From Escherichia phage Mimir124, in sequence record PQ310662.1: 64,000 nt of DNA, one strand, 5' to 3'. Position 1 is the first letter of the stretch. Every line of letters begins with the position of its first letter. The position numbers and the translations under genes are program-made. This document shows positions 2 through 64,000 of the stretch, piece by piece. The notes under the pieces were generated by a model, which was not told the DNA's origin, did no database searches, and saw only the letters and a list, made by a program, of their open reading frames with translations.

Positions 2-181
2 CCTGTTGGTTCATCTGCTGGTACTTTGTCTATTAAGACTGCTCCGGATTCCGGTCGTGCTACAGCTACCATTTCTGGTAACGTACTGACGGTTAAACCA
101 GTGGCTGCTGGTAAAGCTACTTCTGTTGTAGTTACAAATGGTACTGTTGATGTAACCATCGCTATTACTGTTGCAGAATAA
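2..181 (+). CDS. 3' end of a gene encoding an Ig-like (Big_2-type) domain protein; 5' end lies outside the window; possibly a head decoration protein
   Basis: Open frame from the window edge to TAA at 179-181; translation ...ATISGNVLTVKPVAAGKATSVVVTNGTVDVTIAITVAE has the alternating hydrophobic, Thr/Val-rich beta-strand pattern of bacterial Ig-like domains; followed by a strong terminator. Confidence 0.4.
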   Translation, partial: PVGSSAGTLSIKTAPDSGRATATISGNVLTVKPVAAGKATSVVVTNGTVDVTIAITVAE

Positions 182-231
182 GGGTATCCCTTATTTGGGG
201 TTATAAACTCTGAGATAAAACCCTCAAGTTT

Positions 232-262
232 GACCTCCCTATTGAAGGGAGGTCTTTTTTTT
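232..262 (+). terminator. Rho-independent terminator
   Basis: GACCTCCC-tattgaa-GGGAGGTC stem-loop followed by a run of 8 T. Confidence 0.65.
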
Positions 263-287
263 GACTTAAACAAACTGGAGCCAGGAA

Positions 288-476
288 ATGTATAAAGAGA
301 TTGCATTCTTCTCGTTCTTGTTAGGTGGGTTAATTGGTGCAGGATTTGTAGCTATTTCTAATACCTACTTTGGTTCTACTCCAAACTCTGTAACGCAAAC
401 CCTCAAGCATGAATGTGAATTGAATATCCCTCGTAATCAAAGCTGCGTAATGCAGTTCGTACCGGAGAAGAAATGA
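288..476 (+). CDS. small hypothetical membrane protein
   Basis: 62-aa ORF with N-terminal hydrophobic helix (FFSFLLGGLIGAGFVAI); same strand as the block. Confidence 0.3.
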   Translation: MYKEIAFFSFLLGGLIGAGFVAISNTYFGSTPNSVTQTLKHECELNIPRNQSCVMQFVPEKK

Positions 477-658
477 AACTTACTCAGTCCCAAGCAATTT
501 TCCTTCGCATGGTTCAAGGTGGTTCTGCCACCAGCAACCGTAATAACAAAACGGCACAGTCTCTTAAGAAGCTGGGCTTAGTACAGTTCAATGCTGGTCT
601 TGGGTGGTCATTAACCCCTACCGGAGTACTTCAACTTAACGAATTAAAAGGTAACTAA
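473..658 (+). CDS. hypothetical protein
   Basis: 61-aa ORF, start overlaps the upstream stop (ATGA), typical phage gene packing. Confidence 0.3.
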   Translation: MKLTQSQAIFLRMVQGGSATSNRNNKTAQSLKKLGLVQFNAGLGWSLTPTGVLQLNELKGN

Positions 659-28878: not shown

Positions 28879-31800
28879 TTAATTTACCAGGTTCATCCAA
28901 GGGTTAAGGTTGTGAGCACGAAGCCCCTGACCAAAGCCCCATGAGTAATCCAGACTACCCTTAGCAGCAATGCTAAAGATGTTGTCCTGAATAGGTAAGC
29001 CAACGTTACCAAACATGGTAGGAGTTGGAGCCAACATAGCCATAGCAGCATGCACTGGGTTATTACGAATCATGGACACTGCAACTTTTGCAGAACGAAT
29101 CTTAAAGTTGTAGAACCACATTAAACCAACACTTTCCATATACCCACGGAAGCGACCAGGTAAACGATCATAGTTAATGAACTCTTCCGTTACACGTCCT
29201 AGTGCTTCTTCACGAGTCTTACCTTTACGCTGGGTCAATTCATCATAGATGATTGCTTTAGCGATAAAGTCAGAGTACTCAACGGTCTTCTGGATACCCT
29301 GGAATAAAGCAGTATCCTTAGTGATAAGTGCATAACGTCCGGCAGTACGTACTGACTTAGGTAGCTTATCTGCCAATTTACTCATGTACTCTTGAAGTTT
29401 ACCTTCGGTAATAAGGATGTCATCACGACCGATACCAGCGTCTGCAATTGAAGAGAACTCACCAGCTTCTAACAGAGGCCAGATACTCATACGCTTATGG
29501 CTATCAGTAATGGACTGAATCTCAGCCTTAAGTTTACGAATCTGGTTCGGGTTAGTAGCTGCACGTAATTCTGCTTCTGCATCTACCTGACGCAGACGAG
29601 ACTTCAGGTACTGGTTAATCTCAGCAGTTTTCTGTGGAATGCTCTTAGCAATGTTCTTAACCGGTACGCCACGGGCAACCATCTGGTAAAGGTTAGCCAA
29701 GAAGTTAACAGCAGGTACGACTACTGACTTAACTACAATCAGAGTCTTGGCTTCTTTAACTAAGTTCTGAACCAGGTTCTCACCACCCATAGTGTACTTA
29801 TAAGCACGGTTGCCAAATACACCCAGCATAGCTTTCTTGAAGGTATCCAGGGTTTCCGGGGACCAACGAGAATTACCAGACCAGGCATCACCAACAGAAG
29901 CTGCACGATAACCAAGTGCATCATTCAGCATGTCACGACGCACCCACAGTTCGCCATCACCAAACAGGCTTTCTGCTTTCCGTCGAGTTTCACTGTTCAT
30001 CAGCTTAAGTGCATCAGCAGTTACTGGGTCCAGTTTAGAACCAAGAAGGTTCACATACTGGGACTTGTTAGAGGCAGACATCTTTATGTCGTTCTCATAC
30101 ATACTATGCAGGTTCTCAATCAGCATATCGTTGAAACGCTGTGCCTTAGCCTCTTCCACCTGACGCCCACGCCATACACCAATTGCACGTGCAAGATGGT
30201 TCTCACCTTCAATATGCTTCAGCATGTTAGGGTCAATGGATTGCTCATAAGCAACTACATTACCTTTATCATCATATACAGGCAGGAGTGGTTCATTACC
30301 ACGTTCACCACGAGCCAGTGCTTTAGTGATACGGTCTACGGAAGGCTTGTCAGTGATACGACCTGCTACCATGGAACCCATCGTAAAGCCTGTACCCAGG
30401 TCTACACCACCAGCAGTATTACGAACGTTCTGTAGGATACCCTGTGAGAATGGAGCCTGTGCCTGTACTGGTGCAAAGTAATAACTACGTGCCGGACCAC
30501 GGTTAGCAGAACTACCTTGATAAGTACCCAGACGTACATAGGACTTCTCAATCAAATCAGCAAACTGACTATCTTCAGCAACAATCAGATTAACGCCCTG
30601 TTTAGTCTCACTAGGGATATGCCCTTTGTACTGGTTCAGGGTTGCACGCATATCAGATTTGGCTTTAGCCATTTCATCTTTACGCTGACCAACCAGATAA
30701 GAAGTAGCAAAGTCCATTCCCTCAACTTCTGATTGAGCCAGTGAAGATAACATCTCACGGTCGGACTTATTCATTGCTTCCAGTGCATACAGGGTAATCA
30801 GTTTATCCAGTTGAGCTACATCTACAGTAGAACGAGCAGCCTGACGTTCACCCAGCATACGAGAGATTGCAGTAGCATTACGCAGCAGGTTATTACCGAC
30901 TGTACCATTAATCATGTACTGAGCCAGTTGCTTAGATTTACGACTAATAAGAGGCCAGTTACGACCAGCTTGTTTTTGCAAATCTGCTTCCAGCTTATTC
31001 ACTTCACGGTCAACAATCTTCTGGTCAGTCAGCAGGTCACGGATTTCAGCCAGAGACATAGTGTCACGCAGAACAGCTAAGTCAGTTTTACCCATACCAG
31101 TGTGCATTGCTTTCCACTCATCTTTAGTCAGCTTACGGCTGAACTTAGATGCGATAGTGGTGGGCAGGTGTTCACGAAATTGTTGACGGTCTGCTTGTAC
31201 CTGTGCACGAACTGCTTTAATTAAATCATATACAGAAGCATTACTCTTAGTACGACCAGTTAGGTCATTAACTAAGTCATGGAAAGGTTGCCATACCTTG
31301 CCTTGGTTCATTGCAGCCATAACACCTTCAGCTACGATTACACCATTCTTCTCTGTAGCAATGGCAGCTACCAGTTGTGCAGCATGAGCAGCACCTTTAA
31401 CCAACGGGTTCTTGGTATTAGCTGCAACTTCACGAGCACTTTCTAAAGCACGGGTGGACAGTGCATCAATAGAATCCACCAGATACTGGTTAGCACGGTC
31501 GATAGCATTACCACTAGGTATAGCAACGGAATCATAAAATGACTGTGCATTGAGGCTGGTCTGCATGATTGTCTGAGCCAGTGCATCCGTCCCTTCCTGC
31601 ACATTGGTGGCTTTGGTATCACCTGTTACACGAGCATTCAGGCTAGACATTGCAGCAGTACCGATGTTAGTCAGCATTGCATCAATGGTATTACCAGATT
31701 TCTTATCTGCTTTCATAACAGGAATGTTAGCCAGTACATTACGTACTTCTTCACTAACCATTGCCAGACCAACAAAGGTAGGCAATAAGGAAGAACGACC

Positions 31801-34800
31801 CTGTGCATCAAACTCAATGTTGTTAGCACCCATGATGGTATCAAACTTCTGTTGAGCATAGTAACGGTCAGCAGGGTTAGTGCTATCAGGGTCAGCCATG
31901 AATGCTTCAACGGTCAGGTTCTTAGTGACGTGTGCGTAGTATTCCTGTGCACGAGAAAGAGCAGCCGGACTAATAGCAGCTTCAGTAGCCAAAGCAGCAA
32001 CAATGTTAGTGAACAGTCGCTGTTCCTGCATATTCATAGTGAAGCCATGAGCCTGAACATCACGAGTTACTTTAGTTGCATTCACTACTGCATCAGAGAA
32101 CTTACCCTTACGAATTACTTGCTGTACCGGTTCTGAACCAATGTAGTTAGTAATCAGCTTATCAAAGGTCTGCCCCAACTCTTCCAGACGGGTATTGTCA
32201 CCGTATGCTTTGTTATGGAACAGAGTAGTGTCTTTGGCTACAGCAGCAGTAGGAGCCTGCCCACGCATAACTACAGAAGAGTTAAACAGTAAGCCAGAGA
32301 ACATATCATCTGCGTTAGCAGGGGCTTTCTTACGACCAAATACCAGACGTTTGATTGCTTCATATACAGCCTGAACCATGGCCTTAAGTGCAGTGGTTTT
32401 CTTCTGCTTACCAATCAATTCACGGTTGGTTAAACCCCATGCCATGTACTCATTCAGTGCAGCAGCTTTAGCCATTGCTGGTTCAATAAAGCCATTAGAC
32501 AAGTGACCATTAATGGTATTGAGTGCATCAGCATATGCTTCACGTACTGCCGGGGATTCATCCTTAACATCCAGAGTACGGAACTGGTTCATCAGGTCTT
32601 CAATATTCTGGACTGCTTCATTAGAAGTACCTTCATAGTGAGCCAGTACAGATTCAAAAGTAGAAGCATGTACCAATTCATGAACCAGAGTCTCTAAGGA
32701 AGGAGTAACTAAGTAGATGGTCTTATCTTCAAAGTTAGTCCAGCCATATGCATTACCAGCTTCAGCAGCTTCAATATCTTCCGGTGCTGGGCGAGTAATG
32801 TTCTTCTCAATAGCATAAGCATCCAGTTGAGCAGGAGTACCATAAACAACCTTGTAGTCTTTAGCAGCAAGGGATTTCTGTACTTCTTTCAATACTGCTT
32901 GCTGTTCTGGGGACATCTCTTTAGCCAGCTTAGTGATAGCAGTATTGGACAGCAGACGTACACCGGACTTCAGTACACGACCTACCTTCTCCATTGCTGG
33001 TACTTCTTTCACTGGTTCTGCTTTAGCAGCACGTACTGCATCACGACGCTTATTTAATTCAGCATCAAACAGCTCGTTCAGCTTAGCTACTTGTTGGTCT
33101 ACAGTCAGACCTTCCAGAGAAATTTTACCGTTGTTCACATAAGGAGCACCTACAGCAGCCATCTGGTCAACAGTAGTCTGTACCTGGTTCATTACTTTGT
33201 GGCGAATATCTACACCCAGAGCAATGTTACGCAGATTACGTTCAATCTGTTCAGCACCAATACGTAACAGGTCATCAGTAGCACCTTCACGTTGGTCATA
33301 TTCCAGAGCAGATTTAGCGATAGCCTGTTTGGTTTCATCAGACAGTTTGCTGAAGTCTACGTTCTTCATGAACTTAGCGAAGGAGTCATAAACATTCTTG
33401 ATAGGGTTTCCTTGCCAAGAAGTATATACAGCCTCGTTAGCTTTACGACTTGCATCAGTAATGTCATTAATACCAATGTTCATACCATCAAAGATTTTCA
33501 GGGTATTCTTCGGAGCACCCTTCATAGTAGAAAGAGTCTGCATCATCATGCCATCACCAGTACCGATGGTCATAAATGGAATACCTGCAACACCTGCCTG
33601 TGAAGGAGCATAGATGCTCATTGGCACACGCATACGGTCATCTAAGTTGGTAGCCAGTACTTGGTTAGCAACATCAGTGTTCTCACTACCAGCAATGTAG
33701 AAAGTCTGTGAGCCAGTCTCAATCATTGGAGCCAGCGGAGATAAGCTATTCTGAATTTCATTCAGTTCTTTCTGCGTTAAGAAATCACCTTTCTTCCATG
33801 TTGAGTCTTTTTCTTTTTCTGCAAGTTTAGCCTGTACTGCCTGTTGGAACATATCCTGCAATACCAGAGACTGAATCTGGGTAGCCTTCTGTAAGTTCTC
33901 AGTAGAATGCATCAGACCTTCACCAACAGTATTTCGAATACCAGTACGCATTGGTTCAACGAACAGGTGAAGCATGTTCTCTTGTAAGTTCTTCAGGGCA
34001 TTACCAGATACAGTAAACTTCTGTGGGTCTAACTTACCAGTCAGAGCACCTTCTACCTGCTGAATAGATAACTCACCCTTACGCATAACTGGAACATTGC
34101 CAGTCAGTGCTTCCATAGAAGTAAGGAAAGTATCCAGCATAGCCTGAGCATCAGCCTCAGATGCAGCCTCCTTACCAAACATTGCCATAGCCGGGGAAAT
34201 ACTAGGGTCAGCAGCACGAGCTTGCAGAACGTCGCTGAAGCGTTCGTAGATGGTATCAGTAATTGCACTAACCATCTTGCCAGCAATACCACGAGCACCA
34301 GAACCATAGATGGTAATGGTTAGTGGGTTTTTAGCGATACCACGTTTCAGGTCCAGTGTACCGTCTTCATTCAGGTTAAAGTCTTTGATGAACAGGTCCA
34401 TTAACTTCTGGAGATGATTCATCTGGCTCATAACAGGAACGTTGTTACGGTAAGTACTACGTAATTCACCAAGTGCTTGTTGCAGACCATTAGTAGATGC
34501 TTCATACAGGTCAACACTGTCATCCTGTGAGCGATGCTCGTTCATAGTCTTACCAGCTTTACCGAAGAACAAACCACCCTTAGCAGTATTCTTAATCCAG
34601 TCTGGAGTGAACTTACCACCGGTCATTAATACCATTGCGTTGATTGGGCCATTGGTTACACCATCAGCTTCAACGTACAGTGGGGTATTAAAATTGGCAC
34701 GGTCATCGCTATTCAGGTAACGGGCATATTCCATCAGAGCCATGAGAGCTACGAATGATTTATCACCACCCAAAGAGGTCTTAAGAATATCCACTGCATC

Positions 34801-37800
34801 AACTGGTAAGTAACCAGACTTATCAAACTCAACCATCATATCAACAGCAGGTTTCAGGTTACCTTCCAGAGCTTTGGTCAGCTTTTCAGACATAGCTTCA
34901 CGGGACATGTTATGTACCTTGATGCCTAATGCCTGAGCCAGACCTAACTGAAAGTCAGAGAACGCTTGGCTGTTTTCATTACTCAAGTCAATAGTAGAGA
35001 AGGTTGGCAGAATTGCTTCACGAACCAGCTTACTGGATTGTGGGTTATTCTTACCAAGCATCTGCATACGACCTACACGGGTCATGTTGTAACCATAGTG
35101 AATAGGAGTATCCAGTCCATTCTCCTGTTCCTGAACCTGATTGATTACCCCAAACAAGGAATCGTATGCCATAGACACGGACAGGTTCTTACATTCCAAT
35201 GATTTAGCAGTGTTTACGTTCAGTAGTTCAGGATTAATCGTACCAGCACCCATCAGTTCCAGAATGTTGTCACGACCCAATGCTTCATAGAAATTAACCA
35301 TCGGCATGTGTACACGGAACTCAGTAGCCTGTTCTGCTTTAAGAGCAGCTTTCTGTTCTGGAGTATTCTTGACAGCCGGGTTACGTAACTGAGTTTGAGC
35401 CACGGAAGGAATATCATCCCCGAAGTACATTTTCTCTTCCGGTTCTACGAGGACAGCTTCCTCAATAGCAGTAGGGAAATTGTTAATGGCATCGTTATCA
35501 TCCAGCTTCTCAATGGTGTACAGACCTACAGTCTTATTGGAGGCTGGGTCAATTTCAGACACATCCAGCATAGACTCTTTAACTTCACCCATCTCAATAA
35601 AGGAAGACAGAATCTCTGTAGCCATTGCCATTGGGATACCCTTGGTATAACCCAGTGGTGCATTAGGATTACGATTCAAACCCCAATAGGATTCAATCTT
35701 TTGAGCCAGTGAGTTAGTAGCTTCAACCAGGGTCTGAGCATTCTCGAAGTCAGCCAGAATACCTTCAGGTAACAGGGATGCTTCTACACCAGTAATAGCA
35801 GCTACATCTTTCATGTCTTTAATGGCAGCATTCTGTGTAGCAGTCAGTCGCCATTGCAAACCAGCAAGTACAGCAGTCTCTAGCAACTGGTCATTGAACT
35901 TAAAGGTGTCACCATCCTTCTCAACGATATTCAGCAGTTTACCACCCACCCAACGGTTAGCTTCAGTACCTTCTGCAAAACGTTTACCAACATTCTTGTT
36001 AGCAAGGAACTTAGCTAGACGGTCAGAAAGAGTAGTCTTCAGGGTTTCACCAAAATCAAACAAGTCCTGATAACGCTTAATCACATCACTTGTGAGAGCG
36101 TTATTTTCTTTTTGAGTAAATGCTTCAAAACGAGCAACAGAAGACAGTGCTTTCTTAACATCAGTCAAAGGAGACTCAGAACCAATGGTACGAGACTTAG
36201 GTTCTTCCGGTAGGGTAAATGCTTTCAGGAACTGGTTCGGTGTCTTTTCATTGTTATAGACAGGGAACACTGTTTCCATTTCTGTTTTGGTTTCGACTAC
36301 TTCCTGGGTAGTATCTACTGTTTCAGACTTAGTAGTAGAGACTTCTTCTGTTTTTGGGCTAGTCTCCATAGTAGGAGCAGTCTTATTTTCTACCACTGGT
36401 TTAGCTTTAGGCTGTACAGTAGTAGTGTCCTCTTGCACTGGTGCAGGAGTTTCATCAACCTGATTCACTGGTTCATTGGTCTGTTGGGATTGAGCAGCGT
36501 CAAGATTGCCCTGACGGAACTCTTTAACTACCTGGGCAGCAGGCTTGTCCAGACGTGAATCCAATGGGGTAACTTTCACATGAGAAACATTAAGCTCCGG
36601 GTAAGCCGTAGCAAGTGCGTTAGCAATATCAGCTACGGTTTTGGCCTCCAGTCCTACTTGCTGGGCAAACTTAACAGACTTGGTATCGTAAGGATTGACA
36701 CCGAGTCCAGTACGACTACGTACCCATTCACGGGAAGGCGAGAGAGCCTGATAATGAACAGACTTATTCTTATCCGCATTCCCAGAAATCAGATGCTCAT
36801 TCAACGCTCCGACCTTATTCTGCATGTGCTGGGCGAACTTCATAAAGTCGCTCAGATAAGCGGAGGCCAAATCGAAGTTACCAGAGTTATACGCAGAACG
36901 AATGCGTTTCGCATGTTGCAACGCAGAGTACTGTCCTTCGTTAGAACGAGACTCATCGGTTTTAATTTGTTTACTAACAATGTCTTGAGGACGTAAGCCC
37001 AGTTCTTCTGCTTTAGCGTCGAACTCACGTGCACCCTGTAACAAGGCAGCAGCAGATTGCAGGGCAGCACGTTGATGATTCCCCAGTGTAATCTTACCTT
37101 CACTTGCATGTTTCAGAACCATGTTCACTGAATCTGCATCCAGTACTTCTGGGGATACATCAGCAGCCATAGCAATGTTGTTTGCTTGGGCTTGATTAGC
37201 TTCTTCAGTAGCTTTCAGCTTACCTGCTTCAGCCTGTTCCTGAATCATGGAATGGATAGCACGGTATGCACGGAGTACTTTAGGTGTATTCTGTACGTTA
37301 GCCATCAGGCCAGAGAACTGGTCTACGATAGTAGCAGCAGGGGAACCTTGTTCCAGATTAGCCAGAGCACCTGGGTCACGGTTAATGAAGCTATCCATAG
37401 ACATAATGTTGTCATACATCTGGATTGCAGCTTCCATTTGAACGTTAGGATCTTCAGCAGTATTAACCAGGTCAGCCATCTTCTGAATAGCTTCTACACG
37501 GTTAGTGGAACCAGAAACAGCTTCACGGATTACCAGGTTAGCTTGTTCCAACTCTACTGGGTCGAACTTCATTGCCTGAGTTAAGTCAGCAGCATACTGA
37601 GTAGCAGCAGCTTTCTCTTCTGGAGTGATATCCATTGCATCTACTGCTTCCTGTACAGTTGCTTGTGCCTGCTCTGCCTGAGCAGCAGCTTCCTGTGCAG
37701 CAGCGTTAACCGTAGCATCAGCTACAGGGGATGCTTGTTCATTACGCTTAGCAACTTCTTCCCCACGTTGAACCAGGATGTTAGTAAGAGGAGATGCAGC

Positions 37801-39228
37801 TTTTGCTAATGTTTTACCAACCAGAGAAGCACCAGCCAGAGTAGTACGTAGAGCAGGACCAGCAGAAGCACCAACTGCTTTAACAGTTGCACCTGGAGCT
37901 TGAGCAACCCCAGCACTACCGAAGCCATAAAGTGCACCAAGACCTGCTTGCTCACCAACCCCTTTGAGAGTGTCACGGGATGCATCAACATTTTCCTTGA
38001 TTGCACGGTTCTGGGCATACTGACCGAAGCCGGATTGAATACCCTCTTCTACAGTTTCACGGAGCATGTTAGAACCAGCACCAGCCAGTGAACCTACCTT
38101 AAGTGGGTTAAGTTCAAAACGAGATACCAGTGGGCCGGTAGCAGCAGCAACTGGAGCAGTTAAGCCAGCAGCAATAATACCTGTTTCAGATGCAGTCTGA
38201 CGACGTGCTTCATCAGGGGATAATCCATCAGCAATATGTTGTTGGTAAACAGGAGACTTACTTGCCAAATCTTGATGGGACATCTTCATGATTTCAGAAG
38301 CAGTCTGTTGGTATGCACCACCAGCTTCCATACCACCAATTGCAATAGCAGGTGCAGCAACACGACCAGCAGACAATGCAACCTGTGCAGGGCGTGAACC
38401 TAACTCAGCAGCTAAGGTAATACCCTTAACAGCTTTATCACCACCTACCATTACTTTACCAAGTGCAGATACACCACGGATAAGTGGACCACCAGTAAAG
38501 AGGGAACCAACACCTTCACTCAGTCCGTCGGAAGCAGCCATACCATTATCAAGTGTATTAGCAACAGAATCGAAAGCATCACGACCAATGCGAGACAAGG
38601 AGGCAACCAAATCGCTCTCCCCATTTTTGACGTCTTGTTCATAGAGTTTCTGGTTCTTTTGAGCAGAAATCTGGTTCTGATTCTGAACAACTTTACGGGT
38701 AGCATTCAGTGCATCAGATTGTAAATTGTGTACACCTTCATTCAACCAATCCATCCCGGAAGCAATGGATGCCCCGGCATTATCATTGACCAGACCTGTG
38801 CCAAGAGCAGCAATGCCCCCAAGGGTATTAGCAACACCAAGACCAACACCAGAAAGAGTATCGCCAAATGCTTCTGCGTTAGTACGTTGTTTAGATAAGT
38901 CCTGACGTACAACATCAGCAGCATTAGCTCGGCTATTAAGAATTTGTAGACCTTGCTCATTACCGTACTTATTAATGATTTCTAATGGAGAGGCTTGAGT
39001 GAAATCTGCCTGAAGTGAACCCGGTTCGAATGCACCGATTCCAAGATTACCTACTCGTCCAGTCTGGAGATTGTAAGCGTTCTCTGGGGTTAATTGGAAA
39101 GGGCTTTGCCCTTGTGCAGCTTGCTTCTGAGAGGTTGCAGTAGAGACATCGACTTGCTTAGCAGTAGTGATGCTGTCTGCGAAACCTGCCAGACGGTCAA
39201 ATGTTGACATAGCATGTTTCCTGTTCAA
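28879..39228 (-). CDS. giant virion-encapsidated RNA polymerase (N4 vRNAP-like)
   Basis: Single uninterrupted 3449-aa ORF, a size class essentially unique to N4-like phage virion RNAP; position at start of the leftward structural block. Confidence 0.75.
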   Translation of the reverse strand: MNRKHAMSTFDRLAGFADSITTAKQVDVSTATSQKQAAQGQSPFQLTPENAYNLQTGRVGNLGIGAFEPGSLQADFTQASPLEIINKYGNEQGLQILNSRANAADVVRQDLSKQRTNAEAFGDTLSGVGLGVANTLGGIAALGTGLVNDNAGASIASGMDWLNEGVHNLQSDALNATRKVVQNQNQISAQKNQKLYEQDVKNGESDLVASLSRIGRDAFDSVANTLDNGMAASDGLSEGVGSLFTGGPLIRGVSALGKVMVGGDKAVKGITLAAELGSRPAQVALSAGRVAAPAIAIGGMEAGGAYQQTASEIMKMSHQDLASKSPVYQQHIADGLSPDEARRQTASETGIIAAGLTAPVAAATGPLVSRFELNPLKVGSLAGAGSNMLRETVEEGIQSGFGQYAQNRAIKENVDASRDTLKGVGEQAGLGALYGFGSAGVAQAPGATVKAVGASAGPALRTTLAGASLVGKTLAKAASPLTNILVQRGEEVAKRNEQASPVADATVNAAAQEAAAQAEQAQATVQEAVDAMDITPEEKAAATQYAADLTQAMKFDPVELEQANLVIREAVSGSTNRVEAIQKMADLVNTAEDPNVQMEAAIQMYDNIMSMDSFINRDPGALANLEQGSPAATIVDQFSGLMANVQNTPKVLRAYRAIHSMIQEQAEAGKLKATEEANQAQANNIAMAADVSPEVLDADSVNMVLKHASEGKITLGNHQRAALQSAAALLQGAREFDAKAEELGLRPQDIVSKQIKTDESRSNEGQYSALQHAKRIRSAYNSGNFDLASAYLSDFMKFAQHMQNKVGALNEHLISGNADKNKSVHYQALSPSREWVRSRTGLGVNPYDTKSVKFAQQVGLEAKTVADIANALATAYPELNVSHVKVTPLDSRLDKPAAQVVKEFRQGNLDAAQSQQTNEPVNQVDETPAPVQEDTTTVQPKAKPVVENKTAPTMETSPKTEEVSTTKSETVDTTQEVVETKTEMETVFPVYNNEKTPNQFLKAFTLPEEPKSRTIGSESPLTDVKKALSSVARFEAFTQKENNALTSDVIKRYQDLFDFGETLKTTLSDRLAKFLANKNVGKRFAEGTEANRWVGGKLLNIVEKDGDTFKFNDQLLETAVLAGLQWRLTATQNAAIKDMKDVAAITGVEASLLPEGILADFENAQTLVEATNSLAQKIESYWGLNRNPNAPLGYTKGIPMAMATEILSSFIEMGEVKESMLDVSEIDPASNKTVGLYTIEKLDDNDAINNFPTAIEEAVLVEPEEKMYFGDDIPSVAQTQLRNPAVKNTPEQKAALKAEQATEFRVHMPMVNFYEALGRDNILELMGAGTINPELLNVNTAKSLECKNLSVSMAYDSLFGVINQVQEQENGLDTPIHYGYNMTRVGRMQMLGKNNPQSSKLVREAILPTFSTIDLSNENSQAFSDFQLGLAQALGIKVHNMSREAMSEKLTKALEGNLKPAVDMMVEFDKSGYLPVDAVDILKTSLGGDKSFVALMALMEYARYLNSDDRANFNTPLYVEADGVTNGPINAMVLMTGGKFTPDWIKNTAKGGLFFGKAGKTMNEHRSQDDSVDLYEASTNGLQQALGELRSTYRNNVPVMSQMNHLQKLMDLFIKDFNLNEDGTLDLKRGIAKNPLTITIYGSGARGIAGKMVSAITDTIYERFSDVLQARAADPSISPAMAMFGKEAASEADAQAMLDTFLTSMEALTGNVPVMRKGELSIQQVEGALTGKLDPQKFTVSGNALKNLQENMLHLFVEPMRTGIRNTVGEGLMHSTENLQKATQIQSLVLQDMFQQAVQAKLAEKEKDSTWKKGDFLTQKELNEIQNSLSPLAPMIETGSQTFYIAGSENTDVANQVLATNLDDRMRVPMSIYAPSQAGVAGIPFMTIGTGDGMMMQTLSTMKGAPKNTLKIFDGMNIGINDITDASRKANEAVYTSWQGNPIKNVYDSFAKFMKNVDFSKLSDETKQAIAKSALEYDQREGATDDLLRIGAEQIERNLRNIALGVDIRHKVMNQVQTTVDQMAAVGAPYVNNGKISLEGLTVDQQVAKLNELFDAELNKRRDAVRAAKAEPVKEVPAMEKVGRVLKSGVRLLSNTAITKLAKEMSPEQQAVLKEVQKSLAAKDYKVVYGTPAQLDAYAIEKNITRPAPEDIEAAEAGNAYGWTNFEDKTIYLVTPSLETLVHELVHASTFESVLAHYEGTSNEAVQNIEDLMNQFRTLDVKDESPAVREAYADALNTINGHLSNGFIEPAMAKAAALNEYMAWGLTNRELIGKQKKTTALKAMVQAVYEAIKRLVFGRKKAPANADDMFSGLLFNSSVVMRGQAPTAAVAKDTTLFHNKAYGDNTRLEELGQTFDKLITNYIGSEPVQQVIRKGKFSDAVVNATKVTRDVQAHGFTMNMQEQRLFTNIVAALATEAAISPAALSRAQEYYAHVTKNLTVEAFMADPDSTNPADRYYAQQKFDTIMGANNIEFDAQGRSSLLPTFVGLAMVSEEVRNVLANIPVMKADKKSGNTIDAMLTNIGTAAMSSLNARVTGDTKATNVQEGTDALAQTIMQTSLNAQSFYDSVAIPSGNAIDRANQYLVDSIDALSTRALESAREVAANTKNPLVKGAAHAAQLVAAIATEKNGVIVAEGVMAAMNQGKVWQPFHDLVNDLTGRTKSNASVYDLIKAVRAQVQADRQQFREHLPTTIASKFSRKLTKDEWKAMHTGMGKTDLAVLRDTMSLAEIRDLLTDQKIVDREVNKLEADLQKQAGRNWPLISRKSKQLAQYMINGTVGNNLLRNATAISRMLGERQAARSTVDVAQLDKLITLYALEAMNKSDREMLSSLAQSEVEGMDFATSYLVGQRKDEMAKAKSDMRATLNQYKGHIPSETKQGVNLIVAEDSQFADLIEKSYVRLGTYQGSSANRGPARSYYFAPVQAQAPFSQGILQNVRNTAGGVDLGTGFTMGSMVAGRITDKPSVDRITKALARGERGNEPLLPVYDDKGNVVAYEQSIDPNMLKHIEGENHLARAIGVWRGRQVEEAKAQRFNDMLIENLHSMYENDIKMSASNKSQYVNLLGSKLDPVTADALKLMNSETRRKAESLFGDGELWVRRDMLNDALGYRAASVGDAWSGNSRWSPETLDTFKKAMLGVFGNRAYKYTMGGENLVQNLVKEAKTLIVVKSVVVPAVNFLANLYQMVARGVPVKNIAKSIPQKTAEINQYLKSRLRQVDAEAELRAATNPNQIRKLKAEIQSITDSHKRMSIWPLLEAGEFSSIADAGIGRDDILITEGKLQEYMSKLADKLPKSVRTAGRYALITKDTALFQGIQKTVEYSDFIAKAIIYDELTQRKGKTREEALGRVTEEFINYDRLPGRFRGYMESVGLMWFYNFKIRSAKVAVSMIRNNPVHAAMAMLAPTPTMFGNVGLPIQDNIFSIAAKGSLDYSWGFGQGLRAHNLNPWMNLVN

Positions 39229-60483: not shown

Positions 60484-61144
60484 GTACTAGTTTAGAACCA
60501 GCAATCTCTTTGGTAGGTACACCACTATTGATTGCATTGATTTGCTGTTCAGCTAGTGCAGCAAGTGTTGCCTTGAGGTCGGTTAACCCGGAGTTCTCTC
60601 TCAAGTCCAGATTGATATTTGTCACCTGGTCTTTTGGTTTAGCTAAGTGAGTAAGGATAGAGTTAGCTGCATCACATCTTACCTTCTCACTTGCTGCTGT
60701 AGTCATTAGTTCAACCTGAACGTTGATTGCCTTCTGATAATTGTCTTGGTTCACAATCCACACTGGAACCAAACTTTGTTCCATGATGAGGTTAACTAGC
60801 TTACCCCTGTGGTAAGCAGATACATAAGCACTAATATCTTTCTCACTGGTTCCACGTGCTACAAGTTCTGCTTGTCGGTTAGGGAATGTTTTAAAGTAGG
60901 CTTCCTTATTGGAATAGCCCATATGTTTGTAAGTCACATACTGAACTGCATTCATGTAGTCCTGTGTCTTGAACTTACCCTCCTTCATAACACCAGAGTA
61001 GGAGATGAAGTTTTCACGGAATGCCTCAGCAACCAGTTGGTCTTGGGTTATGTTGTTGATCGTGTCTACCAATTCCTGGCTTACACTATTTTTGAAGTTA
61101 GCAGGTAGTGCATTAATAATTTGCTGTCTGGTTAACTCACTCAT
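60455..61144 (-). CDS. putative terminase small subunit
   Basis: 229 aa immediately upstream of TerL, overlapping its start; assignment by position. Confidence 0.3.
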   Translation of the reverse strand: MSELTRQQIINALPANFKNSVSQELVDTINNITQDQLVAEAFRENFISYSGVMKEGKFKTQDYMNAVQYVTYKHMGYSNKEAYFKTFPNRQAELVARGTSEKDISAYVSAYHRGKLVNLIMEQSLVPVWIVNQDNYQKAINVQVELMTTAASEKVRCDAANSILTHLAKPKDQVTNINLDLRENSGLTDLKATLAALAEQQINAINSGVPTKEIAGSKLVRADEDITDV

Positions 61145-61315
61145 ACTTATCTCTCTACAAAGTTATGTCTATTAACGAAGATTCTTTTCTTGGGGTGAGA
61201 TACCCCTTGAAGAAACCATACCATACAGTTACACTTTAGTCATGATATAGAAAAAGTTCATGATACTAAATAGTATGTAATGTTCCGATGACCTTATTCC
61301 CTAAAGGAGTAACCT

Positions 61316-61606
61316 TTGAGAATCTATATGAGAGTCTACGACTCTAAAGATGAATACAAAGAGCTAGACCACACCAAGGCTGGTATTCTTTCAGATGATA
61401 TTATCATTACACATGATGAAGATATCTATCATGAATTAGCTGGGATGATGCTGTTAGAGAATCGTCCAGGCATTAAGATCTTAGAACCAAGAGAAACTTA
61501 CTCTTTAGAAAAACGCTTTTCAGCTCTTGTGTTCTTCACAAAATTACCTCATAGTGTCTCCATCAAACGAAGCAAAGACAGAGTTCGGATGACGGTGACG
61601 ATGTGA
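61316..61606 (+). CDS. small early-region protein, paralog family member 1
   Basis: Shares motif YHELAGMMLLENRPGIKIL with downstream paralogs. Confidence 0.4.
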   Translation: MRIYMRVYDSKDEYKELDHTKAGILSDDIIITHDEDIYHELAGMMLLENRPGIKILEPRETYSLEKRFSALVFFTKLPHSVSIKRSKDRVRMTVTM

Positions 61607-61754
61607 TTAGTCATACCGCCTAGTAGACAGTGGCGGTACTCGTAAAGAGTTAATAACTTCTACAGTCAGGGTTGCCCGGCTCCTTTCCTACCTAGTAGGC
61701 TAACGATACACATGTATCTAGGGTGATGAACTGACCCGTGATAGAAAACGGTAA

Positions 61755-61790
61755 GGGGTAGAGTCGAGAGGCTCTGCCCCATTTCTTTTT
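61755..61790 (+). terminator. hairpin plus T-run (terminator or attenuator)
   Basis: GGGGTAGAG-tcgagagg-CTCTGCCCC followed by ATTTCTTTTT. Confidence 0.45.
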
Positions 61791-61806
61791 CAGGAGGTAT
61801 GCAACT

Positions 61807-62205
61807 ATGAGCATCTACGCTTTTGATATTGATATTACTGGAGTACTTCATAAGCAGGAACCCTATCTACTTGGGGAACCAGAAACAGTAAGTAAGTTCA
61901 TTGCCCCGTGGCAATCTGTGTTCTTACCTAACTGTGAAGAGTCCCATGAGATTGTTGGTTCTCTCTTCTTATCAAACCTACAACTTAATACTGAGATACT
62001 TACCGAACCAAAGGTGTATGACCTCACTCGTTATGATGGATTCAATGAGTTCTTCCCTGGTATACGTTTCTATAAAATACCCGGTTGGGAATTGATAGCT
62101 GCCCATAATGTCTTTAATAAAACACTTTCCATTTACTTCAGACCTATTCCTAAAGGAAGGAGAATCAATCATGAAATTCATAATGACCGCCCCCAGTTTT
62201 ATTAA
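61807..62205 (+). CDS. small early-region protein, paralog family member 2
   Basis: SHEIVGSLFLSNLQLNTEIL motif. Confidence 0.4.
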   Translation: MSIYAFDIDITGVLHKQEPYLLGEPETVSKFIAPWQSVFLPNCEESHEIVGSLFLSNLQLNTEILTEPKVYDLTRYDGFNEFFPGIRFYKIPGWELIAAHNVFNKTLSIYFRPIPKGRRINHEIHNDRPQFY

Positions 62206-62485
62206 AGGGGAATTATTGTTTACAACTGACTTCACTTTAGAAGAAGTGATGAACAGCAGTCCCCAACGAGTAATACTGGTTCCTACTTTAGAAGATTATC
62301 ATGAAGTAAGGGGTCAGCTATTCTTAGCTGGTTGTGACCGTAAGGTTGTATGTATCATTCCTCCCTCAGTATACACCGTTAGTTGTGCATATGATGCTCT
62401 ACCTTTCATGATGATATCTCATGACTACCAGTGGGATAGTCGTCATGATAATGATGACTATCGTTACTACTATGTAAGGAAGTAA
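62171..62485 (+). CDS. small early-region protein, paralog family member 3 (start chosen at ATG with RBS; longest ORF starts 62108)
   Basis: YHEVRGQLFLAGCDRKVVCI motif; GGAAGGAG RBS before ATG 62171. Confidence 0.4.
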   Translation: MKFIMTAPSFIKGELLFTTDFTLEEVMNSSPQRVILVPTLEDYHEVRGQLFLAGCDRKVVCIIPPSVYTVSCAYDALPFMMISHDYQWDSRHDNDDYRYYYVRK

Positions 62486-62488
62486 GTT

Positions 62489-62809
62489 ATGCACTTCTAT
62501 GGTTTGAGTTATCGTAGTACCAGTCCCCTTAATCTGGGGGTAGGTAAATCCCATTGGTTGAGGATAAGCACACCTATGACCATGTACTACGAACAATGTG
62601 AAAAAGCGGATGAGTTCATCGGAACCTGCCTCATGTTGGGTGTACCTATTACCTTTATTAAAATAGATACTTCCATTGAAGTTCCAGAGAATGTAGTTGT
62701 ATACATCTACTCCTCCTGTGAACCTATGGTAGTAACTACCTTAACTGGCAGACTTATTACCCTCTGCCCTTCTACCTCAAATTTATCTAGCGACGAGTGT
62801 ACCTTATGA
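62489..62809 (+). CDS. small early-region protein, paralog family member 4
   Basis: ADEFIGTCLMLGVPITFIKI motif. Confidence 0.35.
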   Translation: MHFYGLSYRSTSPLNLGVGKSHWLRISTPMTMYYEQCEKADEFIGTCLMLGVPITFIKIDTSIEVPENVVVYIYSSCEPMVVTTLTGRLITLCPSTSNLSSDECTL

Positions 62810-63147
62810 ATAGAGTACTGTACCTCCATCAGTATACGGATGAAGTCTCTGTTTACTCTGAGAACATTACTAAAGCTATTGATTGGTTACTCCCCCAAGA
62901 CTGTCATATGCTTATGCTACCTGGAGAGTTAGCAGATAGTACCCGTGGTTCCATCCTTCTTCTCAATAGTCCAGCTAAGTTAACCATCCTTAATCCGAGG
63001 GAATCCATAAAGATACCTGCTGGTGAATCTGCATTCTTGTTCTTTGAACCAAGGATAGAAGAAGGGTTTGTTGGGCTTACTATAGACAGTAGACCTAATA
63101 AAGATTTTAAAAGAGTACGTATCATTACCCCAAGGGTGCTCTTATGA
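62797..63147 (+). CDS. small early-region protein, paralog family member 5
   Basis: PGELADSTRGSILLLNSPAKLTIL..ESIKIP motif, closest to member 6. Confidence 0.4.
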   Translation: MYLMNRVLYLHQYTDEVSVYSENITKAIDWLLPQDCHMLMLPGELADSTRGSILLLNSPAKLTILNPRESIKIPAGESAFLFFEPRIEEGFVGLTIDSRPNKDFKRVRIITPRVLL

Positions 63148-63186
63148 AATCAAACACATCTCCTTACCGGATATGGATACTAAAAC

Positions 63187-63525
63187 ATGAACGTTAAGCT
63201 CTTAGGAATGAAAGGTACAGACTTACTGCATTATTCTTCTGTACCAGAGAAAGTAATCCTCCACGTTATGTCTCATGGAACTTCTACACTAATAATGGAA
63301 CCAGGAGAGTTAGCAGAATTTGCACAGGGACATAAGCTAATTACTAACAGTAACGCAGAGATAGTTATCCTGCAAAATGGTGAGTCAGTCTTCATACCAT
63401 ATGGTGATTATGCCCATGTATTTATCAAAGATGCTACCGTAAGGAATAGTAGTGGTGGTAATAACCATCCGGACTATTACCCTGGTATAGCACGCATAAT
63501 CACCCGAAAGCTTCCTCCTATTTAA
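63187..63525 (+). CDS. small early-region protein, paralog family member 6
   Basis: PGELAEFAQGHKLITNSNAEIVIL..ESVFIP motif. Confidence 0.4.
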   Translation: MNVKLLGMKGTDLLHYSSVPEKVILHVMSHGTSTLIMEPGELAEFAQGHKLITNSNAEIVILQNGESVFIPYGDYAHVFIKDATVRNSSGGNNHPDYYPGIARIITRKLPPI

Positions 63526-63742
63526 CTGCTTATAATTAGGATAGCTATCATATTTTTGCATACCATTTTGGTCATAGCTATGTATAGCTACAGTGGTGGT
63601 GGCTAGGGCTACACCCTTACACTCAACCATCCCCCCCGGTATGTTGACGGTGTAGCCACTACCCTACCCCACCTTACACGTTACACATGCTCCGCATGTT
63701 ATGGACATGTCGTCCTATCATCAACTATTGGAGCTATCATCA

Positions 63743-64000
63743 TGACTACTACCGCTTCTGTACGTATGACCGCAGGAACTTTACTTGGTACTGTTAACTC
63801 AGCTGCTACTACTGTTGCAGATACCTTCGGTACTGCAACTAAAGCAGTAGGTATGCTTAATTCATATGTTAGTACTATGGCAGAGAAACAGGCCATCCGT
63901 ACTAAATTAGAAATGCATACCTTTGTTAATAAACTGGCAGAGGAAACAGCTATGAACGAGACTCTGCGTAAGAAAAGTATCGAAGATTTCTGCAAGGATT
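63743..64000 (+). CDS. 5' part of a + strand gene running off the window end
   Basis: ATG at 63743 opens a frame with no stop to the window end (MTTTASVRMTAGTLLGT...); absent from the ORF track because it is incomplete. Confidence 0.4.

Follow-up and report, generated by a model that had tools for sequence, protein, structure and literature searches.

A plus-strand homologue of phage N4 gene 1 behind a predicted virion RNA polymerase promoter at the edge of an Escherichia phage Mimir124 sequence

The early promoters of phage N4 contain a GC-rich heptamer centred at -11 with inverted repeats on either side, and the contacts reported for the N4 virion RNA polymerase (vRNAP) are template -11A/G, -10G, -9C, -8G and +1C (PMC4496689). 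The N4 laboratory listed gp1, like gp2, among the cofactors of RNAPII, a heterodimer of gp15 and gp16, on evidence that the laboratory called preliminary (PMC4496689). In the model of the Drc paper, gp1 unwinds the AT-rich promoter and the ssDNA-binding gp2 then recruits RNAPII; N4-like phages of the LUZ7 type are without gp1 (PMC7145618). The cofactor role was repeated in a 2026 structural paper (PMC13434306). The part played by gp1 in opening middle promoters was never published in full, and the Mimir124 copy described here adds nothing new on that point. The gene itself is known and is routinely annotated in relatives: it stands at 154..480 of the linear N4 genome and at 145..468 in G7C, within the terminal repeat, and the IME11 counterpart is annotated as a 107-aa CDS, 'uncharacterized protein Gp1 (12 kDa protein in genome left end) (ORF 1)'. 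Across the family the gene keeps its place at the left genome end.

The window analysed here is the whole 64,000-nucleotide stretch taken from Escherichia phage Mimir124 (PQ310662.1). Its last 900 bases and its last 20 kb were searched by megablast and matched Gamaleyavirus records at approximately 90-95% identity, IME11, 24-32N, K57alpha1.2 and pSb-1 among them. No identical record was found in the phage collection (best match approximately 95% DNA identity by megablast), and the last 52 bases of the window had no exact match among IMG/VR viral contigs. On the strength of these matches, the window is assigned to a G7C/IME11-like, N4-like coliphage (Gamaleyavirus, Schitoviridae). The opening ORFs encode an ATPase, HNH endonucleases and a dCTP deaminase. 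Ahead of the gp1 region, the - strand carries a terminase-large-like ORF and a gp69-like ORF, and the gene for the early polymerase lies further upstream in the window.

28879..39228, - strand: virion RNA polymerase gene (3449 aa; phrog_2206 'virion RNA polymerase', 4124.7 bits).

The RNAPII genes, sought as the partner of gp1, were not found in the window, which begins downstream of them; these genes and the gp2 gene are located in the approximately 8 kb of genome outside it.

In the linear records of G7C, N4 and KP8, base 1 aligned to window positions 63599-63601, 141-143 nt 5' of the gp1 ATG, and the window is therefore a circularly permuted assembly. The direct terminal repeat appears to have been collapsed to one copy in this permuted assembly, which would place the physical left end approximately 142 nt before gp1.

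63600..64000, no strand: presumed beginning of the direct terminal repeat (physical left end), placed from the left ends of G7C, N4 and KP8.

The G7C annotation places the terminal repeat, gp1 included, within bases 1-1160, and the right repeat copy of that phage begins 59 nt past the last gp71-like gene. The stretch between the left end and the promoter (63600-63685) was strongly conserved from the Gamaleyaviruses through N4 and KP8. Within it lie, as conserved motifs of the terminus, GGGCTACACCCTTACAC, seven consecutive C residues at 63631-63637 and CCCTACCCCACCTTACAC; the C-run and CTACCC motifs were found again even in Achromobacter and Erwinia phages. This stretch may be a terminus-recognition or packaging signal.

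The genes preceding the repeat form an array on the + strand.

61316..63525, + strand: six small genes, N4 gp70/gp71-like, at the right end of the genome and immediately ahead of the right terminal repeat.

All six array ORFs matched PHROGs of unknown function (E<=1e-43 each), and their layout is that of G7C gp70, gp71, gp71.1 and gp71.2 and of IME11_80-86. The ORFs at 62797-63147 and 63187-63525 are paralogues (both phrog_12606); these last two align weakly with the others, which share a weak common motif, hE..G..Ll.n....i.il.p.e. Array copy number varies in relatives, with 4 copies in G7C and 7 in IME11. The 125-aa ORF at 62108-62485 overlaps the gene before it (61807-62205). As this ORF matches its PHROG only from residue 22 onward, the true start is probably an internal ATG at about 62171 (MKFIMTAPS...).

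Downstream of the array, the initial annotation had noted that the ORF track offered only a - strand ORF and had argued that the + strand reading was the more plausible gene. The - strand ORF is as described (63699..63995, 98 aa, TTG start). The + strand ORF was missing from the mechanical ORF list because ORFs running off the window were excluded from it. The two frames and the ribosome-binding site are as follows.

63742..64000, + strand: gp1 homologue, N-terminal 86 codons plus one base (assigned from the translation, PHROG 5020 and relatives).
63730..63733, + strand: Shine-Dalgarno GGAG, 8 nt before the ATG.
63699..63995, - strand: antisense ORF from the track, spurious (no family match, stops in relatives, 16% open expectation).

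A + strand ATG had been placed at 63743. The codon is real, and its position required correction to 63742-63744, since the frame read from 63743 is interrupted by many stops. From the corrected start (surrounding + strand sequence TTGGAGCTATCATCATGACTACTACC) the translation begins MTTTASVRMTAGTLLGTVNSAATTVADTFGTATKAV and stays open to the window end, as had been claimed, for 86 complete codons (63742-63999). The 86 sense codons read MTTTASVRMTAGTLLGTVNSAATTVADTFGTATKAVGMLNSYVSTMAEKQAIRTKLEMHTFVNKLAEETAMNETLRKKSIEDFCKD. The Thr/Ala-rich N-terminus described earlier was seen in this translation, and the orientation is indeed that of the six small + strand ORFs in the array before it. The distance from GGAG to ATG was identical in 15/15 phages compared.

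The + strand product was matched to PHROG 5020 with E=1.4e-36, residues 2-86 aligning to profile positions 1-85 of 106. A tblastn search with the 86-aa fragment returned 130 phage records, each with at least 80% query coverage, at identities from 97.7% down to approximately 35% (the low end comprising Achromobacter, Erwinia, Stenotrophomonas, Xanthomonas, Burkholderia and Pseudomonas phages). In a large protein database the family formed 63 clusters, nearly all of 105-111 aa and all with the precomputed label PF26891; the PF26891 model is absent from the local Pfam copy, and searches of local Pfam-A, NCBIfam and PDB sequences with gp1 gave sub-threshold noise only. The ORF was intact with the same start and a length of 101-111 aa in 14/14 relatives drawn from several Schitoviridae subfamilies. 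A 42-sequence alignment contained 27 invariant columns, including the charged or polar positions K49, Q50, E67, E68 and R76 and an invariant F-C-K motif. On these grounds the ORF is taken to be homologous to gp1 (ORF1) of phage N4, first among the early genes. In the K57alpha1.2 record (OY979416.1 34671-36881) the gp1 region lies under a pseudogene-flagged CDS labelled 'DNA primase'; adjacent labels look shifted too, which suggests a mis-registered annotation.

The stop codon and the last approximately 21 codons fall outside the window, and intactness of the gene was read from relatives at 94-98% identity. The initial annotation had named an early stop in the + frame, together with homology of the - strand product, as the outcome that would speak for the track. 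The closest relatives run for 21 more codons to 107 aa, and the - strand product showed no homology to known proteins. The full-length Mimir124 protein is expected to have approximately 107 aa, with approximately 21 codons, about ...SENARIYNAEYSKVIDILTKD, past the window end.

It was then considered whether the track is right, with the - strand ORF at 63699-63995 as the gene and a + frame that just happens to be open. The - strand ORF is open for 98 aa, its product still matched 89 phage records by tblastn, and its dN/dS against close relatives was below 1. Codon position 3 of the - frame coincides with codon position 3 of the + frame, as read from the coordinates, so that matches in 89 records and a low dN/dS would be expected of any antisense frame whose third positions are also those of a conserved gene; the antisense product therefore looks conserved. 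Its identity was below that of the + product throughout and was lost sooner with divergence (66.7% vs 76.7% in N4-type phages). It had no match in PHROGs, Pfam or NCBIfam, whereas the + strand, in the comparison of ribosome-binding sites and homology that had been proposed for both strands, has both GGAG and the PHROG 5020 match. In the same register, 2-6 stops were found in the antisense frame of each of the 14 relatives, Axy10, JWAlpha and HN04 included, and in G7C, N4, KP8, Axy24, Pokken and others stops fell within the stretch that is open in the window. A gene on this strand would also be read against the early promoter described below and into the promoter region. That the track is right is extremely unlikely.

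Third-codon-position periodicity was rejected as a strand discriminator: substitutions pile up at the same sites in both frames and, as third positions are common to both, periodicity cannot separate the strands. Nei-Gojobori dN/dS was lower in the + frame in 7/7 pairs (0.04-0.27 vs 0.10-0.35, a 1.3- to 3.7-fold difference), a measure that separates the frames weakly for the same reason. When the gp1 protein was held fixed and synonymous codons were resampled from the codon usage of the window, 16% of trials left the antisense frame without a stop; of the 85-codon stretches taken in that register across the long genes of the window, 3.9% were open. What keeps the frame open is the composition of gp1, which is rich in Thr and Ala and has little Tyr, His or Gln. 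The + strand ORF, with its matched family and 130 records, is far beyond chance, and the - strand ORF is not.

A further reading would have both strands coding, with a lineage-specific antisense gene lying over gp1 in some of the Gamaleyaviruses. In IME11, K57alpha1.2, phi G17 and Moo19 the antisense frame is indeed open over the window-equivalent stretch. It is nevertheless lost in the congeneric G7C through one synonymous Ser codon change at Ser41-Tyr42, the only dipeptide junction of gp1 able to create a stop in that frame, and the frame has no family and no start or RBS evidence. Scans for sigma-70 promoters and terminators over 61000-64000 gave promoter-like sites fewer in number than in shuffles and none relevant to either ORF; those on the - strand were weak consensus matches only. 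Such an overlapping gene is very improbable.

The family match, the relatives, dN/dS, the ribosome-binding site, the promoter and existing annotation thus agree on the + strand, as the initial annotation had favoured. The preferred reading, to which a probability of about 95% is given, is of a real and conserved + strand gene with a GGAG leader and a vRNAP hairpin promoter upstream, the - strand ORF being an antisense by-product. The result is mainly an annotation correction: a track of window-complete ORFs misses the edge gene and displays its antisense shadow instead.

The promoter lies between the left end and the gene.

63686..63698, + strand: predicted vRNAP early promoter hairpin (N4 P1 equivalent), CATGC-TCC-GCATG, 56 nt before the gp1 ATG.

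With its flanking pair, the hairpin reads (A)CATGC-TCC-GCATG(T) at 63685-63699, and the GC-rich heptamer GCTCCGC occupies 63689-63695. A hairpin of the form GC-T[CT]C-GC occurs once in the 64 kb. In its active form the hairpin would be extruded from the template (-) strand, where its loop reads GGA, and the promoter would fire toward gp1. At the homologous sites in relatives the stems were, besides CATGC, GTTGC/GCAAC (N4, G7C, KP8), GACGC/GCGTC (Axy10, JWAlpha, inbricus), GATGC/GCATC (HN04), GCTGC/GCAGC (Pokken) and GGCGC/GCGTC (Axy24). Across 11 distinct sequences 100% of cells were paired, and 3/5 pairs had changed on both sides. The stem covariation score was 0.582 vs 0.172 +/- 0.055 in shuffled sequences, a value reached in 0/500 shuffles, and slid controls were 14-51% paired. 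The DNA fold of the template strand contained the hairpin, although its overall fold energy was not exceptional (z=-1.06). With +1 at 63703, the template G at 63692, 63693 and 63695 and the template C at 63703 are in register with the reported contacts, as is -9C. The homologous site is labelled 'early promoter' in the KP8 record. As judged from this agreement, the site is a predicted vRNAP promoter of canonical form, the equivalent of N4 P1. A further GC-TCC-GC hairpin, AACGC-TCC-GCGTT, was seen in G7C at 503-515, 35 nt past the gp1 stop, and lacks the +1 stem-loop described below; it may serve gp1.1 as an additional early promoter, or be some other signal. The equivalent position in Mimir124 falls beyond base 64000.

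The start was placed at G63703 by analogy with N4 P2, in which it lies 11 nt to the 3' side of the centre of the loop (PMC4496689).

63703..63715, + strand: probable transcription start G63703 and 5'-terminal stem-loop, GGAC-AUGUC-GUCC.
L002 107-119 and 576-593, L001 4525-4537 and 5645-5663: +1 stem-loop at other loci.

A transcript from 63703 begins GGACAUGUCGUCC, with a 4-bp stem-loop starting exactly at +1. A stem at +1 was present in 15/15 Schitoviridae gp1 leaders, and the stems differ (GGACA/TGTCC, GGGTA/TGCCC, GGCA/TGCC, GGGT/ATCC). The mean +1 stem score was 4.07 vs 2.05 +/- 0.44 in shuffled sequences, reached in 0/2000, although the sequences are related, so that these figures overstate their independence. 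N4, IME11 and G7C carry the stem-loop at their second early promoter as well, but KP8 does not, and the hairpin just after G7C gp1 also lacks it. It is possible, though we consider it unlikely, that the +1 stem-loop is a functional element of vRNAP early transcription units, one undescribed in the literature consulted. If it is, it could protect the 5' ends of early mRNAs, or it could be a second extrudable DNA hairpin that aids promoter activation. One chance snoRNA match far below threshold was the only return of an Rfam scan of 63400-64000. With the first vRNAP promoter, the terminal repeat and the physical left end placed at approximately 63600-63703, the whole window gains a frame of reference.

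A scheme for early transcription can be proposed from these elements. After injection, the vRNAP (28879-39228) would recognise the hairpin with a 5-bp stem and 3-nt loop extruded on the template strand at 63686-63698, and would start + strand transcription at about G63703. The mRNA would consist of the short 5' stem-loop, the GGAG ribosome-binding site and then gp1 from the ATG at 63742. By the N4 literature, gp1 would open AT-rich middle promoters, at which ssDNA-binding gp2 would recruit RNAPII. The Mimir124 protein is accordingly described here, from that literature, as a putative RNAPII cofactor at middle promoters, an assignment that we regard as fairly probable. An AlphaFold2 model of a full-length close homologue, built with the 42-sequence alignment, was of low confidence (pLDDT 65, pTM 0.33). 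It was essentially a single long helix (residues 4-83) and then a short one, with residues 1-23 at pLDDT <50. Such a model would be compatible with an oligomeric helical protein; it gives no mechanistic support.

The + strand gene may be real and its product something other than a transcription cofactor, for example a small early protein that is secreted or associated with a membrane, or a factor for host takeover or anti-defence. The approximately 40 N-terminal residues are Thr/Ala/Gly/Leu-rich and poorly predicted, and two Stenotrophomonas phage records name gp1 homologues 'putative secreted protein'. The cofactor role has been described only as preliminary (PMC4496689), and LUZ7-type phages have the same RNAPII scheme without gp1 (PMC7145618). 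Nevertheless, gp1 is listed with gp2 among the RNAPII cofactors by the N4 laboratory (PMC4496689); it is the first gene transcribed, in a left-end position kept across the family, and its invariant K49, Q50, E67, E68, R76 and F-C-K are typical of a soluble helical protein. A role outside transcription is therefore held to be a minority possibility, and the cofactor assignment is retained.

Compared with the three described early promoters of N4 (P1-P3), the Mimir124 site, which is predicted from its sequence, has the heptamer centred at -11, the inverted repeats, the template purine at -11, and -10G, -9C, -8G and +1C. The stem sequence differs and its pairing is kept: CATGC/GCATG with loop TCC in Mimir124 corresponds to GTTGC/GCAAC with loop TTC in N4, a difference of two compensated pairs. 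In both phages gp1 comes first after the left genome end, with the same GGAG-to-ATG spacing and the same architecture of a P1 hairpin upstream, although the Mimir124 gp1 leader is 8 nt shorter than that of N4. N4 gp1 (ORF1, YP_950479.1, 108 aa, '12 kDa protein in genome left end') belongs to the same PHROG 5020 family, and N4-type phages share 76.7% amino-acid identity with Mimir124 gp1 over the 86 visible residues. Closer still are the 107-aa gp1 proteins of G7C (YP_004782125.1), IME11 (AFV29128.1) and phi G17 (YP_010659662.1), at 90.7-97.7% amino-acid identity (given as 94-98% for these three together with K57alpha1.2); the few substitutions that set Mimir124 gp1 apart from those of the Gamaleyaviruses include S6, M71 and D82. 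As in Mimir124, the Gamaleyavirus gp1 genes lie within the terminal repeat, and the gp70/gp71-like array stands across the collapsed repeat from them.
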